Below are positions 3,858 to 13,645 of a DNA stretch of 64,000 nt, piece by piece (positions within the stretch are counted from its first letter, which is position 1; each line of letters begins with the position of its first letter). The position numbers were made by a program, and so were the translations under genes. Source of the stretch: a virus (taxonomy: Duplodnaviria > Heunggongvirae > Uroviricota > Caudoviricetes); the IMG/VR virus record IMGVR_UViG_2724679058_000003. One strand, given 5' to 3'. Below the pieces are notes generated by a model, which worked only from the letters and a program-made list of their open reading frames with translations, was not told the origin of the DNA and searched no databases.

Positions 3858-4213
3858 AGCACCACGTCCTGTGTGATAGTTATATCCCTGATACGAATGG
3901 ATATTTTCAACTTATCAAAAGCATCTCCCTCGGCTACTGACAAGCCAGAAATCGGTATGTCAGGTAAATCTACCGTCAGTTTTTGCAACAGCATTGCCTC
4001 AACCGCAATTTGAACATGCGACAAGTTGGTCGGTTCGTGTTTAAACTGCGGTAAAACATTGCCCCATGACGGATCTCCGTATACCTCACCCTGATAAGTG
4101 TTTAGCCACTCATATAAACGAGCGCCCCAGGCCTCCTCCTGGGACTCATACGTTTTTACGCCGGATAACTCCAGCGTCAGCAAAGGATCAATTTCGTTAT
4201 TGTTGGCCATCAA
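3854..4213 (-). CDS. Hypothetical virion morphogenesis protein
   Basis: 119-aa ORF overlapping neighbours by 4 nt. Confidence 0.55.
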   Translation of the reverse strand: MMANNNEIDPLLTLELSGVKTYESQEEAWGARLYEWLNTYQGEVYGDPSWGNVLPQFKHEPTNLSHVQIAVEAMLLQKLTVDLPDIPISGLSVAEGDAFDKLKISIRIRDITITQDVVL

Positions 4214-6252
4214 TCAACTCTCGCGTAGTCATTCATCAACGGATCATCAATTGACAGTGGTACCGTGCGCATAACGCCCGGCTGAGGCGTGCTGACCTTT
4301 ACGACAGTTCCCTGGCCTTTCGCCGAGTCTTTGGTGTGCTCTTCAATCCTGGCAAGCAATGAGGTCATCTGCGCAAACAGCCGCTTCGTTTCACCATCAA
4401 GTGAAACGGTATTATCAGCCAACTGCATTGTCGGCTTGGCACCGGAACCGCCAAGGTCACTAATAACCTGCCCGTCTATCTGCATACGACCGGTTGGTTG
4501 CTGCAAATCGTTGGCGGCAGTCGTCACCTGGGACGTGGAGGCTGGTTCAGGCGCATTATTTTTCCGCATCCCCGGCGAGTTGCGGAGTTTATCGAATAGT
4601 CCATCAATCCCCATTTGTGCGCCGAGATGGTCAAAGTAACTTGAGTTGTTGGCCACCGGACGCGCCTCTTCAACTGGCATCGGGGTATCAACATACACAT
4701 TGCCAGCTGCTGTTGCGGTCCCCTTCCCTCGTGCACGTTCTTCGAGCGTTCCCTGAACGACTTCCCGACGCATCCCCCGGCCATTCATGAATTTGTTGAC
4801 CAGATCGTTAACGCCAACAGCATTGCCGATTTTGTCTACCAGACCGCCTTTCTCAAACGGGCTATCACCAGGGGTAAACGCCAGGCCAGTAGACTGATCG
4901 ATAACAGCGTTATCAGGCAGTGGTCCCCTCACTCCATATTGCGCCCCACCCTGTGCTCCTGCTCCAGGTGTATAGATTTCACCACCTAAATAGCGAGCAC
5001 GATGAGTATTGACCTTGATCGCGTACTCACGGTTTTCTTTCGATAAGTCACCTGTGCCTTTTTTCCACTTATTAATAGTGCCAAACCCAGCATTATATGC
5101 AGTGATGGCCTCGTTTAAGTCTCCATTGGCTTGCTTCAGATACTTGCTCATGAGAAGAGCCGCAGCTTCTGCCGATTTCACAGGATCAAACGATTCACCT
5201 TCAGCTAAGCCAGTCTCTTCACGAGCAATCCCCGTGAACTGAAACATCCCCAGAGCACCGGTTTGGGATTTTGCATACGGATTACCACCAGATTCAGTTG
5301 CAGCAATCGCGTAAAGAGTGCCTTCTGGAAGACCGTATTTATTCTCTAGTTCAGCAAAATACGGAGCCAACTTATCGAGATTTGCCTTACCTTCAGCGCC
5401 AAGACTTCCGACTTTTACATCCAAGTTGCCATTGTTGTAGGTATCCGCAGCTTTCTGAATGTCATTCCTGGTACCAGTGGTATTAAGCGACGATGATGAC
5501 GAGCTATTTTGACCAATAGCTTTATCAATTTTCTGCAACGCGCTATTGCCCGTTTCTACGGCATTTGCATTGATAATCTGATTGGCAGTTTGTTTAACTG
5601 TTTTATTGCTATCTTTCGCTGTGTCCAGTGCCGCATTTATCACGCGGGTAGCAATATTACTCTGTTTGGCATCGGATTCAGTTTTAGAATCAGACGTCTC
5701 CTGGTGGCTATTAACCGGAGCTTTTAACTCTGGAGTGATTTCTTTCGCATTAGCCTCGCCGATCGGATTGGGTATTTTTGATACAATCATTGCCGCAGGG
5801 GTATTTTTAACGGCATCAACCGCTGCATCTAATGCTTTACCTGGTAAATTTTTAACCCCATCCCAAATATTACCAGCCGCCTCTTTAATGTGTTTCCCTG
5901 GGTTCTTAATGAAATCAATTGCACTATCAATTGCATCACTGAAAACCTGTTTCAGGTTATCGACAGTAAAGAAGTCTTTGATGGCATCCAGCTTTTCAAG
6001 CAGCTTATTAGATGTATCGCTAAACCATGCTGAAACAGCATCACCAATCTTTGCTGTGTAATCATCGAACTTGGTAGAAATGGTGTCGCCAAGGTTAGAA
6101 ATATATGTTTCTAAGTTGGTAATCCCACTATCAATGGTCTGGGCAATACTTTCCGTCGAAAATGATTGCAACATATTGCCGATATCCTCAAATCCAAGTG
6201 ATTTGAGAACCTCACCAATGGCGCTGCTAATACCAGATACCAGTCCCCCCAT
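4210..6252 (-). CDS. sit: Sit-like virion transglycosylase/tape-measure protein, C-terminal portion (SLT domain)
   Basis: 680-aa ORF with lytic transglycosylase motif LYAIAATESGGNPYAKSQTGALGMFQF; frame open upstream to 6313 and overlapping the 444-aa ORF. Confidence 0.75.
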   Translation of the reverse strand: MGGLVSGISSAIGEVLKSLGFEDIGNMLQSFSTESIAQTIDSGITNLETYISNLGDTISTKFDDYTAKIGDAVSAWFSDTSNKLLEKLDAIKDFFTVDNLKQVFSDAIDSAIDFIKNPGKHIKEAAGNIWDGVKNLPGKALDAAVDAVKNTPAAMIVSKIPNPIGEANAKEITPELKAPVNSHQETSDSKTESDAKQSNIATRVINAALDTAKDSNKTVKQTANQIINANAVETGNSALQKIDKAIGQNSSSSSSLNTTGTRNDIQKAADTYNNGNLDVKVGSLGAEGKANLDKLAPYFAELENKYGLPEGTLYAIAATESGGNPYAKSQTGALGMFQFTGIAREETGLAEGESFDPVKSAEAAALLMSKYLKQANGDLNEAITAYNAGFGTINKWKKGTGDLSKENREYAIKVNTHRARYLGGEIYTPGAGAQGGAQYGVRGPLPDNAVIDQSTGLAFTPGDSPFEKGGLVDKIGNAVGVNDLVNKFMNGRGMRREVVQGTLEERARGKGTATAAGNVYVDTPMPVEEARPVANNSSYFDHLGAQMGIDGLFDKLRNSPGMRKNNAPEPASTSQVTTAANDLQQPTGRMQIDGQVISDLGGSGAKPTMQLADNTVSLDGETKRLFAQMTSLLARIEEHTKDSAKGQGTVVKVSTPQPGVMRTVPLSIDDPLMNDYARVD

Positions 6253-6266
6253 ATCAAGAACATTAG

Positions 6267-7601
6267 CTAACGTATAAGCGGCTTTTGCTGGAATGATGGA
6301 TCTTGTCCTGATTTAAGCCCAAACGCTCGACGTTGCGCTTCTGTATCATTCCAACCGGTTACCGCATCATAAATACCTCCAGCCACTGTGCCGACTAGGG
6401 GAATTGCGCGTAACGCCCCTTTACCAACTGCCTTTAATCCAAGTTTACCTGCTGCCCGGGCAGCCAAATCTCCGCCTTCATGGGCGAGAGTCTTCTTGCC
6501 ACCACCGCGTAGCATTCCTACAAGTTTCTTTGCCCCCAGAGCGCCAAAAGCGAGTGCTCCAGCTTTTTTCAGCATGCCACGCCCCATTAACAACGACGCG
6601 ACGCCACCGGCCCCCTTCCCTAACAGGCTAAATAGTTTGGACAGCAAGCCGCCCTTCCTTTTCCCGGTGTTTTTGGCTATCTGATCAAGGGCGCTGAGAA
6701 TCTTGTCATTGCCCTCTTTAATTTCGCTGGTCTGCTCCTGAAGTTCCTGAACCGTCCGTTTTTGGGTGTTAACCTGAACGACATCGGCACTATTTTGCGA
6801 TTTACGCCTAAAAAAACCTTTTCTACGGCTGTTATCGTCATTGCCACGAATCACATCGGCAATAGACTTTCTGGCACCATTAAGCGATCCACCAACTTCT
6901 TTTGATATCCCGCCAAGCTCCTTCCCTGCTGCCCACAATGGACCAGCAACGGCATAACCTAACGCATCGACGGCACGAGTCTCTGAAGGGTTACCTATGC
7001 CTTCAGCTACTTTTGACAGTTTTTTTAATAAACCTGATTCAGCATTTAGACGCTCATCATCCTCTTTGCGCCTGGCCTTTTCAGCACGTTCAGCACGGGC
7101 ATCTTCCGCTGCGGCCTTACTCCCTGACTTTCCAATAAAACGACCACGCGCATCGCGTTGGTTTTGGCTTTTTTGCGCACCGCCTTTTTGACCGAACATT
7201 TCGCGAGCGTGTTCGGCTGCTTCGGTCCGTTGCGCCTTTACATCTTCTGTTATAGCCTTCTTGCGTCGTTTTTTACCCTTTCGCGTAGTTGATTTGGCCT
7301 GCGGTTCCTGTAGAGCAACATCCTCCTGAACTACACGAGAAACGTCCCCTAAATTAAGCCGTTTCATTGCCTCAACAATAGGGTCCACTGATGGCGCATT
7401 GGCCACAAAGTCTGGCCGGGAATTTTCGATTGTGCGATTTAATGCCGACACACTGCGAGAGACAGGATCAACAGTTGCAACGCGCCCCCCTTTCAAATCT
7501 TCAACAGCTTCCCGGATACCTGCAAGCTCTTCCAGCTCTTTTGCGCTGGCGGTTTCAACTGTCCTTATAACATCGTCAATGTTGGCGTTTTTTCTTTCCA
7601 T
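6267..7601 (-). CDS. sit: Sit-like protein, N-terminal portion (Gly/Lys/Ala-rich)
   Basis: 444-aa ORF ending 15 nt before the 680-aa ORF start, in the adjacent frame; a single-base change in the run at 6284..6287 would join them. Confidence 0.65.
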   Translation of the reverse strand: MERKNANIDDVIRTVETASAKELEELAGIREAVEDLKGGRVATVDPVSRSVSALNRTIENSRPDFVANAPSVDPIVEAMKRLNLGDVSRVVQEDVALQEPQAKSTTRKGKKRRKKAITEDVKAQRTEAAEHAREMFGQKGGAQKSQNQRDARGRFIGKSGSKAAAEDARAERAEKARRKEDDERLNAESGLLKKLSKVAEGIGNPSETRAVDALGYAVAGPLWAAGKELGGISKEVGGSLNGARKSIADVIRGNDDNSRRKGFFRRKSQNSADVVQVNTQKRTVQELQEQTSEIKEGNDKILSALDQIAKNTGKRKGGLLSKLFSLLGKGAGGVASLLMGRGMLKKAGALAFGALGAKKLVGMLRGGGKKTLAHEGGDLAARAAGKLGLKAVGKGALRAIPLVGTVAGGIYDAVTGWNDTEAQRRAFGLKSGQDPSFQQKPLIR

Positions 7602-9916: not shown

Positions 9917-10300
9917 CTACGTATGCATCGAATGTTTTAACTTCCATATCAGGGTATCTGACCAAAAACCATACCAGTAACTATCACCCACAGAGGAACC
10001 GATAGAACTGATAGGATATTCATCATCACCAACTTTCAGCGTTATTTGTTCTTTTTTAGCATCAAATGACTCACCGCCAGGTTCTGTTTTCATGAGAGTG
10101 AGTAGTCGTGTTCCTACTTGATTGGGATCCGTATTATTAAATCCAACATCGCACTCAAATGTAAGCGTATAATTATCTTTGCTGGAAACAGCATAAGAAC
10201 GAACACCATGAGTCTCGCCGGTTGACCATTTGCTTACATTTGCCATTGATGAAAACGGAGTAAGCAAAGCAAGAATTAGAAAATATAGTTTAATGCGCAT
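9917..10300 (-). CDS. Exported small protein (Sim-region-like)
   Basis: 127-aa ORF with N-terminal signal peptide MRIKLYFLILALLTPFSSMA. Confidence 0.6.
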   Translation of the reverse strand: MRIKLYFLILALLTPFSSMANVSKWSTGETHGVRSYAVSSKDNYTLTFECDVGFNNTDPNQVGTRLLTLMKTEPGGESFDAKKEQITLKVGDDEYPISSIGSSVGDSYWYGFWSDTLIWKLKHSMHT

Positions 10301-10351: not shown

Positions 10352-11026
10352 TCACCATTCATAGGGTAAATTAAGCGCTTTTAAACCTTGCTGGAAAGTA
10401 TTAAGAGAGCCATTTTTTTGTTGTTCCATTTTTTCGCGTGCAGCTTTCTCATACTGCTCCATCCGTTGGTTATACTCTTGCAATTCCTCCGGGGAGAGGT
10501 TTCCCATTGGGGAGTTTGTACCCGGCCCCCTGGCCCGTTCTTCAAGCGTACCCTGAACGTTTTGATGGCGCATTCCCGGGGCGTTTCTGATTGAATCAAT
10601 GCCATTTCTTCCAACGTCTTCTTTATTAACAGCATTGCTCGCCACCAGTACGCCCCAGCTAGGGATAGCAAAATCAGGAGCGGTTTCGCATGCCTTTACC
10701 ATATAATCGAAAGAGCTTCGATTAATCTCGTTTGCGTCGGGATTTAATAGGCGAGAATATTGATATTTAGCATTTTCGTTGGTTGCGACTTTATACAGTT
10801 CTTGCTGCACCATCGCTTCAGAAAGTTTAAGGCGTTTCATATCTGACAGTAACTTCTTGCGCATGGATTCGTCTTGACTGACAGCAAAGCCGTAAACGTG
10901 CCCAAGGTATTTCGTATAATCGGTACAAATCTCCTTTACACTTGATGCTGCATTAACAGTCCCAGCCATAAATAATAACGGTAGTAATAGTTTTCTCATT
11001 ATAACCTCACCTGCCTTATAACTCAT
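10352..11026 (-). CDS. Secreted protein, SimC-like superinfection-exclusion candidate
   Basis: 224-aa ORF; signal peptide MRKLLLPLLFMAGTVNA; carries a segment homologous to the Sit C-terminal part. Confidence 0.6.
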   Translation of the reverse strand: MSYKAGEVIMRKLLLPLLFMAGTVNAASSVKEICTDYTKYLGHVYGFAVSQDESMRKKLLSDMKRLKLSEAMVQQELYKVATNENAKYQYSRLLNPDANEINRSSFDYMVKACETAPDFAIPSWGVLVASNAVNKEDVGRNGIDSIRNAPGMRHQNVQGTLEERARGPGTNSPMGNLSPEELQEYNQRMEQYEKAAREKMEQQKNGSLNTFQQGLKALNLPYEW

Positions 11027-11648: not shown

Positions 11649-12133
11649 AAACACCTCTCGTCACCCGTAATGACATAGCCGAAGCGATCGCCCTGCATAC
11701 TGCCTGTATGCCGACACGGGAGATCCCCGGCGCAATTGCCAACTATTTCATGATAACCAGACGTTTTTATACCCGAACAGATAAGGCTGTGATCAACAAG
11801 CTACTGATAGCCGAGATCAGGGATTATTTGATTGAACAAGGACGTCTACGTTACGCAACAGTGGCAGCAGAAATGAGAAAGGAGGCACATAGAATGACCG
11901 GTAATAATTTAAATGTTGAAAAACCAGCACCTGTTGCTTCAGCTACGCCAGCACCAGCCGTGAATATCATTCCCAACACCGGAGACACAATCGACAGCCT
12001 GACACTGTTAAAGATGGTCAATGAAGCGCGTAAGTTATGTGGGGAACCAGAGGTTCGGAACAACAAATTCATCGAAAAAATACTCGATGAGCTTGATGGT
12101 GAGCACTACACAAAAAGTGTAGTGAAAAAATGA
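11645..12133 (+). CDS. Antirepressor-like protein, N-terminal module
   Basis: 162-aa ORF coupled (ATGA) to the following KilAC-domain ORF. Confidence 0.55.
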   Translation: MKTPLVTRNDIAEAIALHTACMPTREIPGAIANYFMITRRFYTRTDKAVINKLLIAEIRDYLIEQGRLRYATVAAEMRKEAHRMTGNNLNVEKPAPVASATPAPAVNIIPNTGDTIDSLTLLKMVNEARKLCGEPEVRNNKFIEKILDELDGEHYTKSVVKK

Positions 12134-12681
12134 ACAAAACATCAATGCTTGTCATAACCATGACTTTCAAACAAGCCCTGCGAGTCGCCGCGCGCGAGTC
12201 AAAAGCGGTCCGCCGTTCGCTGATCGACAAACTGGAAGAATTACAGCAGGCAAACTCACCTACCCCATCGATCCCCCAGACATTACCAGAAGCCCTACGC
12301 CTGGCTGCCGAGTTAGCAGAACAGAAAATGCAGTTGGAACAACAGCTGGTGGCCGCAGCCCCTAAAGTCGATTTTGCCGACCGGGTATCAGTGGCCAATG
12401 GAATCCTGATCGGGAACTTTGCAAAGGTCGTTGGACTTAAGCAAAACGCCCTTTTCTCATGGTTGCGCCAGAACGGCATTCTCATGGCTTTTGGTGCGCG
12501 CAAAAACGTACCGCGCCAACAGTACATCAACGCCGGGTATTTCACGGTGAAAGAAGTGGTACTGGATGATGAAAATGGCTACCAGATACGGCTGACGCCC
12601 CAATTAACGGGTAAAGGCCAGCAGTGGTTAACTCGCAAGCTACTTGATGCTGGTTTGTTAAAACCAGTAGCAATAGGTTAA
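12130..12681 (+). CDS. Antirepressor, KilAC (Ant C-terminal) domain protein
   Basis: 183 aa; LPEALRLAAELAEQK...GNFAKVVGL...TGKGQQWL closely parallels the C-terminal half of the 12845..13645 protein. Confidence 0.75.
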   Translation: MNKTSMLVITMTFKQALRVAARESKAVRRSLIDKLEELQQANSPTPSIPQTLPEALRLAAELAEQKMQLEQQLVAAAPKVDFADRVSVANGILIGNFAKVVGLKQNALFSWLRQNGILMAFGARKNVPRQQYINAGYFTVKEVVLDDENGYQIRLTPQLTGKGQQWLTRKLLDAGLLKPVAIG

Positions 12682-12844: not shown

Positions 12845-13645
12845 ATGCAACAAACATTCAATGCGGATATGAATATATCAAACCTTCATCAAAATGTCGA
12901 TCCTTCAACCACTCTGCCTGTTATTTGTGGTGTTGAAATTACGACCGACCGCGCTGGCCGTTACAACCTTAATGCTCTACACAGAGCGAGCGGACTCGGT
13001 GCCCATAAAGCGCCAGCTCAATGGCTAAGAACGCTGTCAGCCAAACAGCTCATCGAAGAGCTTGAAAAAGAAACTATGCAGAATTGCATAGTTTCGTTCG
13101 AAGGCCGTGGCGGCGGCACTTTTGCCCATGAATTGCTCGCAGTGGAGTACGCAGGCTGGATTTCTCCCGCGTTTCGGCTGAAGGTAAACCAGACATTTAT
13201 CGACTATCGAGCCGGAAGATTACAACCTGCTATTCCGAAGAGCCTCCCAGAAGCTCTCCGTTTGGCTGCTGACCTGGCAGAGCAAAAGCAACGGCTGGAG
13301 CAAAAAATGCTGATGGATGCACCTAAAGTCGAATTCGCCGAACGCGTTGCTACCGCCAGCGGGGTTCTAATCGGCAACTATGCCAAAGTGCTCGGCCTGG
13401 GCCAAAACTATCTCTTCACCTGGTTGCGTGATAACGGAATTCTGATCGCAACCGGTGAACGCAGGAACGTCCCCAAACAAGAATACATATCCCGTGGGTA
13501 TTTCACCCTTAAAGAAACCGTGATCGATACAAGCAATGGAAGCAGGATTTCTTTCACGACTCGTATAACCGGCAAAGGTCAGCAGTGGCTGATGAAGCGA
13601 TTGCTTGATGCTGGTGTGCTGGTACCTGTCGCGGCAACGCGCTAA
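12845..13645 (+). CDS. kilA: KilA (KilA-N domain plus KilAC domain)
   Basis: 266 aa; N-terminal KilA-N-like region and C-terminal ANT/KilAC region. Confidence 0.8.
   Translation: MQQTFNADMNISNLHQNVDPSTTLPVICGVEITTDRAGRYNLNALHRASGLGAHKAPAQWLRTLSAKQLIEELEKETMQNCIVSFEGRGGGTFAHELLAVEYAGWISPAFRLKVNQTFIDYRAGRLQPAIPKSLPEALRLAADLAEQKQRLEQKMLMDAPKVEFAERVATASGVLIGNYAKVLGLGQNYLFTWLRDNGILIATGERRNVPKQEYISRGYFTLKETVIDTSNGSRISFTTRITGKGQQWLMKRLLDAGVLVPVAATR

Follow-up and report, generated by a model that had tools for sequence, protein, structure and literature searches.

A conserved short motif shared by the tape-measure protein Sit and the secreted full-length SimA protein of a P1-like phage, and its possible role in superinfection exclusion

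The window analyzed here, a stretch of 64,000 nucleotides of viral DNA (IMG/VR record IMGVR_UViG_2724679058_000003), originates from a P1-like phage/plasmid (Punavirus). Between positions 4000 and 11200 it is 98% identical to Escherichia phage vB_EcoM-Ro157c2YLVW and, across the common parts, 97–98% identical to P1 and P7. Our analysis concerns two of its genes, sit, which encodes the tape-measure or injection protein of the virion, and a gene for a secreted protein of 224 amino acids, which we call SimA-full for reasons given below. In the original prediction, made from the sequence of the window, a segment common to both proteins was noted and taken as a hint that the secreted protein acts as a decoy or competitor during superinfection. 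The positions of the features are collected in Table 1.

Table 1. Features of the sit and sim regions and their positions in the window (aa, amino acids; ORF, open reading frame; HMM, hidden Markov model; nt, nucleotide).
Feature	Position	Strand	Evidence or remark
sit, gene for tape-measure/injection protein with SLT lytic transglycosylase domain	4210..7601	-	98–99% identity with the 1130-aa Sit of P7/Ro157c2YLVW
SLT domain of Sit, aa 298–407 of the 680-aa ORF	5032..5361	-	Pfam PF01464, E = 4.3e-27
Sit motif copy 1, aa 477–513: NAVGVNDLVNKFMNGRGMRREVVQGTLEERARGKGT; core 4717..4785	4714..4824	-	BLASTP, PHROG profiles, hhalign, codon comparison
Sit motif copy 2, first half only, aa 547–566: MGIDGLFDKLRNSPGMRKNN	4555..4614	-	BLASTP, HMM domain
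simA-full, 224-aa ORF	10352..11026	-	phrog_3933, E = 4.8e-137 over aa 10–224
SimA-full motif, aa 131–170: NAVNKEDVGRNGIDSIRNAPGMRHQNVQGTLEERARGPGT; core 10517..10585	10517..10636	-	BLASTP, PHROG profiles, hhalign, codon comparison
Predicted Sec signal peptide MRKLLLPLLFMAGTVNA, predicted cleavage after VNA (between MRKLLLPLLFMAGTVNA and AS)	10949..10999	-	seen in the sequence; n-h-c pattern in all homologues
Gene for YfjT-like secreted protein, phrog_3429	9917..10300	-	immediately downstream of simA-full, two-gene cassette; shortened by 1-nt deletion

In a single BLASTP comparison, residues 477–519 of the Sit ORF and residues 131–177 of the 224-residue protein were aligned with 23 of 47 positions identical and one gap of four residues (E = 5e-9). 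Apart from a weaker second copy in Sit, this was the only significant local match between the two proteins. The observed score of 43.1 bits compares with 17.3 ± 2.6 bits (maximum 31.2) for 500 shuffled versions of the 224-residue protein. The match was also found reciprocally with protein families: residues 138–180 of SimA-full matched the Sit family phrog_2533 (E = 9e-8), residues 479–520 of Sit matched phrog_3933, the family of the secreted protein (E = 2e-6), and alignment of the two family alignments with hhalign yielded E = 1.4e-5 over 24 columns. The motif sharing between Sit and SimA-full is therefore real and far above chance, as had been predicted, and the positions given for it (4720–4800, with 4730–4780 facing 10510–10560) fall on an ungapped core of 23 codons. 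In this core, 17 of 23 amino acids and 49 of 69 nucleotides are identical, and the common pattern is NxxGMRxxxVQGTLEERARGxGT. The predicted length of about 45 residues corresponds to the span of the gapped alignment, whereas the strongly conserved part comprises about 23–25 residues. In its general form, the motif consists of a short helix and N-x-(P/R)-G-M-R-x-(Q/E), usually followed by x-V-Q-G-T-L-(E/A)-E-R-A-(R/Y)-G. A short linear motif best explains the segment that the two proteins have in common. Dibasic cleavage of the OmpT type between GMR and a following R or K was considered as a function and rejected, as other Sit lineages have MRQQ, MRHQ or MRHE at this position.

A profile of 59 motif positions was searched against 1.84 billion representative proteins with a cut-off of E <= 1e-3. 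Only 11 proteins were retrieved, namely three Sit homologues (1081–1124 residues), three homologues of the 224-residue protein, three fragments and two unrelated proteins. The latter, P0033 and P0035, are internally repetitive and have only weak matches in multiple stretches. Within the window, the motif was found in no gene other than sit and simA-full. In these searches, the motif is restricted to P1-family Sit proteins and the relatives of SimA-full. A widespread low-complexity linker, which had been named as the finding that would refute the prediction, is not what was observed, with nine of the retrieved proteins being members of the two families or fragments of such members.

The similarity that had also been reported at the nucleotide level stands in so far as 71% of the core DNA is identical, but for 10 of the 17 identical residues the two genes use different codons, and the likeness is thus held at the protein level. 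For the same reason, a recent DNA copy or gene conversion between the two genes was ruled out. Across diverged loci, GMR is invariant in both families, although within each family Gly is encoded by GGA, GGG, GGC and GGT and Arg by four codons, and VVQGTL in Sit displays the same pattern of fixed residues despite codon variety. In the alignment of the SimA family, G151 and R153 are invariant and N148, M152 and Q155 nearly so. GMR and its neighbors are invariant among SimA homologues down to about 53% identity, with synonymous change being saturated. These patterns indicate that the motif is under purifying selection in both families. They also argue against the possibility that the motif in SimA-full is an evolutionary relic, i.e. 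a functionless fragment of sit left in simA by an old illegitimate recombination, as does the retention of the motif in truncated alleles. An event of this kind is conceivable between genes that lie 5.6 kb apart on the same strand, with the sim locus being a recombination hot spot in which cassettes are swapped and relics such as P1 simA are found, and the second half of the motif was lost in many homologues. The core in simA-full has a GC content of 0.62 and a GC content at third codon positions (GC3) of 0.57, compared with 0.33–0.44 and 0.18–0.45 in the flanks, and thereby resembles the sit region. This lends weak support to a relic, but the excess results largely from the content of Gly, Arg, Ala and Pro, and 23 codons are a small sample. 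We consider it improbable that the motif in SimA-full is a functionless leftover.

Sit was identified as the tape-measure protein by proteomics of P1 virions (PMC9024508), which together with the SLT domain bears out its description as an injected virion protein. In the window, sit is represented by two ORFs of 444 residues (6267..7601) and 680 residues (4210..6252), and one inserted A restores an intact sit reading frame of 1130 residues. The ORF of 680 residues matches phrog_2533 (score 1448), and a search with this ORF yielded only near-identical Sit proteins among the matches listed. A word-index search with a 126-residue segment of Sit returned six Sit fragments only and was uninformative. 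All Sit proteins examined carry copy 1 of the motif, including those with no more than 44–47% identity in the C-terminal 410 residues. Copy 2, residues 547–566 (GIDGLFDKLRNSPGMRKNN), matched the first half of the SimA-full motif more weakly (E = 0.01 by BLASTP, and also as an HMM domain). It is located inside an insertion of about 55 residues (4555..4700 of the window, approximately residues 518–566 of Sit) that is confined to P1/P7-type Sit. Because D6-like and Salmonella-type Sit proteins carry a single motif copy each, the insertion seems to have come from an internal duplication of part of the motif region.

Two clearly different variants of the SLT domain occur in Sit, and they were exchanged independently of the downstream motif and the C-terminal block (window, P0029, P0031 and L004). 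In the Sit protein P0029, the other SLT variant is combined with the motif and C-terminus found in the window, and the recombination breakpoint between SLT domain and motif lies just upstream of ...DQSTGLAFTPGDSPFEKGG. The motif block is thus inherited with the C-terminal part and not with the SLT domain, which speaks against a function linked to the enzyme domain. A role of this type would resemble that of T4 Spackle, a periplasmic inhibitor of the gp5 lysozyme: the motif could be a ligand or autoinhibitory peptide of the SLT domain of Sit that is delivered in trans by SimA-full. Its position about 70 residues downstream of the SLT domain would fit such a function, and the family phrog_13449, annotated as transglycosylase, aligns with Sit residues 296–520 including the motif. 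However, the inheritance of the motif block in P0029 is independent of the SLT type, and an AlphaFold2 (AF2) model did not place the motif against the SLT domain, although the model has low confidence in this part and is too weak a basis for judging such contacts. No match to inhibitors of the Ivy, PliC or MliC type was found in Pfam at E <= 0.1, and no sequence match in the PDB. Inhibition of the SLT domain by the motif appears very improbable to us.

Residues 1–57 of SimA-full are 88% identical to P1 SimA, and the sequences diverge thereafter; the shared part comprises the signal peptide and the beginning of the mature domain (compared stretches: P1 simA, L001 8635..8793; window 10856..11026). 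As P1 SimA has only 52 residues, P1 simA is the 5' relic of a full-length gene, the rest of which was replaced by simB-simC. The 224-residue protein is accordingly the full-length SimA, located in the sim locus in place of simB/simC. Translation probably starts at the ATG at 10999, which is preceded by GGTGAGG and would yield 215 residues, and the RefSeq annotation of the same gene in Ro157c2YLVW likewise has 215 residues. The prediction that the protein is secreted agrees with the canonical Sec signal in its sequence and with Cys34 and Cys113, which are invariant in the family alignment and consistent with a periplasmic disulfide. Its designation as SimC-like has to be abandoned, since BLASTP detected no similarity to P1 SimC (E = 29 at best), and SimC matches phrog_14355, whereas the window protein matches phrog_3933. 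Homology to P7 Upf50.0/DUF5384 was rejected on comparison. SimA-full has 22 homologues with 59–100% identity, and phrog_3933, for which the annotation reads simA domain protein, occurs exclusively in P1-like elements from Escherichia, Salmonella, Klebsiella, Shigella and Cronobacter. In PLSDB, at least 82 of 267 matching plasmids, mostly E. coli plasmids, contain full-length simA, while the remainder mostly have only the relic, seen as a match of 25% coverage to residues 1–57. Searches of PADLOC, NCBIfam and the PDB (the latter by sequence and profile) gave no match for SimA-full. A likeness of residues 34–118 (10672..10927) to PTPlike_phytase (PF14566) was dismissed: it reached 26.4 bits with a cutoff of 27 bits, was seen in six of 11 members and lacked the CX5R motif, and it is probably only a resemblance of helical regions.

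All members of the SimA-full family have a helical N-terminal domain followed by ...RKEDxGxxx...N-(A/S)-(P/R)-G-M-R-x-Q. The second half of the motif, (N/K)-V-(Q/E)-G-(T/A/S)-L-x-x-R-A-(R/L)-G, is present in the E. coli alleles and in P0017, P0018 and P0030, while other homologues contain the first half NAPGMRxQ only and then one or two Cys-hairpin modules (PSxxxxFKxC...C). One common E. coli allele, found in 16 loci, stops right after the motif with ...ERARGPGVAP; some alleles stop 5–13 residues past it (13 residues in P0018), and the window allele adds a predicted helix at residues 179–217 with a block-mean predicted local distance difference test (pLDDT) score of 54–66 in AF2. Because the alleles end soon after the motif or carry unrelated tails, the motif can be regarded as a conserved module on a variable tail. 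Pairwise alignment and structure prediction had been suggested as checks of the shared segment; the alignment was significant as described above, but the structure models were weak, with mean pLDDT values of 43 for SimA-full and 50 for the C-terminal fragment of Sit, modeled from shallow alignments. The motif of SimA-full was modeled as coil (block-mean pLDDT 29–39), copy 1 in Sit had a pLDDT of 30–48, and only the SLT domain was confident in the Sit fragment. In Sit, the motif is situated in a predicted non-globular stretch between the SLT domain and the conserved C-terminal block. Within the limits of the shallow alignments, the low pLDDT in both models is as would be expected of a linear motif outside globular domains.

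Conservation in both families and location in non-globular regions would also be expected for a processing or handling signal at which a single periplasmic protease, chaperone or component of the envelope would recognize each of the two proteins as it matures, with no antagonism between them. Tape-measure proteins of other phages, such as lambda gpH and T5 pb2, are proteolytically processed, and the SimA alleles that end soon past the motif look as a processed product might. Yet absence from all other proteins among the 1.84e9 representatives would be odd for a general host-handling signal, and the motif has no likeness to known protease or chaperone motifs. A shared processing signal is thus an explanation to which we assign a low probability.

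We tentatively propose that SimA-full is a competitive mimic of the Sit segment and blocks superinfecting P1-like phages, a reading that we regard as quite possible but would not call probable. During infection, the motif-bearing part of Sit is expelled into the periplasm, where the segment would dock to a partner during periplasmic transit or channel formation. In a lysogen, SimA-full exported by the Sec pathway would show the same motif in the periplasm on a flexible C-terminal tail; its gene and that of the secreted YfjT-like partner protein lie together in the hypervariable sim locus, which adjoins the immunity region. SimA-full might occupy the partner to which ejected Sit must dock, be it a factor of the host envelope or a further phage component that is ejected, and DNA delivery by superinfecting P1-like phages would consequently be halted after adsorption. 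Competitive mimicry is favored because of the specificity of the motif, the selection acting on it, its display on the tail, the Sec signal, the position in the sim locus, the precedents for exclusion at the level of the tape-measure protein and, as a further precedent, blocking by an element of an entry protein made in the cell (see below). More generally, a role of SimA-full in decoy or competition is plausible and appears compatible with motif sharing, locus, secretion signal and conservation. We infer the exclusion role of SimA-full from its position; expression in lysogens, the exclusion phenotype, the existence of the partner and competition for it are likewise parts of the proposal that we infer. 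The narrower assumption that SimA-full is a decoy reproducing no more than one short linear motif of the tape-measure protein injected by the same phage, and that it saturates a docking partner in the periplasm or inner membrane and thereby excludes related phages, seems rather unlikely.

Several observations weigh against competitive mimicry. In P1, the gene is reduced to a relic of 52 residues and exclusion is brought about by the unrelated SimC; because SimC lacks the motif, the motif is not needed for exclusion at the sim locus. Many SimA-full homologues have PSxxxxFKxC in place of VQGTLEERARG and retain the first half alone. The motif in SimA of the window fits the Sit of L006-type phages better than its own Sit (E = 2.6e-11 versus 3e-8), and in L004, Sit has ...LAERAYGPGV whereas SimA has ...LESRARGNGV. 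Strict co-variation between the motifs of Sit and SimA in the same phage was accordingly rejected, the correspondence being partial only. Sit was not resolved in the 2026 cryo-electron microscopy structure of P1 (PMC12810830), and the AF2 models may support no more than the description of the motif as not confidently globular.

A partial correspondence between the two proteins does exist: the identical 10-mer QGTLEERARG occurs in Sit and SimA of E. coli P1-type phages, while Sit of other lineages has QGTLAERAYG, and APGMRHQ is present in Sit and SimA alike in L006-type phages. The identical 10-mer would also be in line with direct poisoning, in which the motif serves as a self-association element of Sit and periplasmic SimA-full co-assembles with incoming Sit by contacts from motif to motif and jams channel formation, with no third party being competed for. 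Tape-measure proteins are oligomeric, exclusion proteins that act by direct binding are known (T4 Imm), and the two first-half copies in P1/P7-type Sit are what one might expect of an interaction repeat. On the other hand, the motif is short, flanked by Gly and Pro and modeled mostly as coil, and the match between own Sit and own SimA is imperfect, so that we judge poisoning of Sit assembly to be improbable as well.

Among known exclusion systems, P1 SimC occupies the same genomic slot as SimA-full and likewise has a Sec signal peptide, but neither SimC nor SimB contains the Sit motif, and SimC has no sequence similarity to SimA-full. In the work of Kliem and Dreiseikelmann from 1989 and of Maillou and Dreiseikelmann from 1990, P1 SimC was reportedly described as a periplasmic protein that undergoes processing and stops infection at a stage following adsorption. 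P1 SimA, annotated as a putative superimmunity accessory function, differs from the complete gene of the window in being a relic that lacks the body of the N-terminal domain and the motif. Genome delivery is stopped at the tape-measure step by envelope proteins in other phages, namely by T4 Imm, HK97 gp15 and Ltp of the Streptococcus thermophilus phage TP-J34, whereas for SimA-full only motif sharing can be stated. To our knowledge, none of the three includes a duplicate of part of the tape-measure protein; being membrane proteins or lipoproteins, they bind it instead, and they have no sequence relation to SimA-full (no PADLOC or Pfam hit); for T4 Imm, the bound protein is gp29 (bioRxiv 10.64898/2026.03.06.709160). 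T4 Spackle is a small secreted phage protein directed against a muralytic component of the incoming tail, as SimA-full might be, but is not homologous. Occupation of a periplasmic co-receptor by an element of an entry protein made in the cell, which prevents subsequent entry and relies on short linear motifs of disordered regions, is known from exclusion by g3p of filamentous phages (Ff g3p/TolA) and from the Tol/Ton motifs of the colicin type. In Ff exclusion, however, the blocker is the virion protein itself, whereas SimA-full is the product of a separate gene and has the motif only, and its motif is unlike TolB or TonB boxes.

Exclusion directed at the tape-measure protein is thus already known, but a secreted accessory protein that reproduces part of the tape-measure protein would be a new form of it. 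We found no description of full-length SimA or of the motif in the literature searched, which did not include the P1 genome paper. For studies of how Sit crosses the periplasm and opens the inner membrane, the motif of 25 residues marks a concrete and mutable site of Sit, and SimA-full is a natural candidate competitor. Direct tests thereby become possible both of entry and of what the variable sim cassettes do. If the narrower decoy reading were true, the motif would single out the host or phage factor on which delivery of the P1 genome depends, and exclusion via linear-motif mimicry of an ejected virion protein would be defined. If the decoy idea is wrong, there is still a clean case of a conserved linear motif that one phage has in a virion protein and again in an accessory protein. 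In addition, the annotation of P1 simA can be corrected to a relic of a larger gene.

The genes around the two motif carriers are arranged in the order bplA-pmgA-sit-pmgB-tub-pmgC, followed by the variable cassette and c4/icd/ant. By synteny with P1, P7 and Ro157c2YLVW, simA-full occupies the slot between the late promoter LPsit/pmgC and c4/icd/ant, the counterparts of which are simB/simC in P1 and two other genes for secreted proteins or lipoproteins in P7. The sim region is a recognized hypervariable region in P1-like plasmids (PMC9603915). A gene of the family PF27224:YfjT follows simA-full in L004, L006 and L007 as well, and in L008 a similar secreted ORF of 168 residues is found after simA-full. 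No Sit segment was detected in the other cassette proteins (P1 SimB/SimC, P7 Upf50.0/50.5 and the YfjT-like protein). The YfjT-like gene of the window lacks one base of a C-run (context 9944..9960, C3 versus C4), which shortens the product to 127 residues, compared with 158 in Ro157c2YLVW, and in sit one base is missing from an A-run (context 6278..6293, with A4 here and A5 in Ro157c2YLVW and P7). The occurrence of two homopolymer indels within 4 kb suggests that they are assembly or sequencing errors and that the genes are not true pseudogenes.

In P7, the same locus (L002 7350..8414) contains genes for a TraT-like lipoprotein and a DUF5384 protein, and one E. coli plasmid (L008 2108..3510) has a YfjT-like gene there and, after it, one for an SH3-domain protein. 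No segment of Sit recurs in any of these proteins. Beyond the cassette, two neighboring ORFs on the plus strand of the window (12130..12681 and 12845..13645) have very similar C-terminal halves (...PEALRLAA(E/D)LAEQK...GILI...GKGQQWL...LLDAG...) and look like duplicated antirepressor/KilAC-type domains that replace P1 ant1/ant2.

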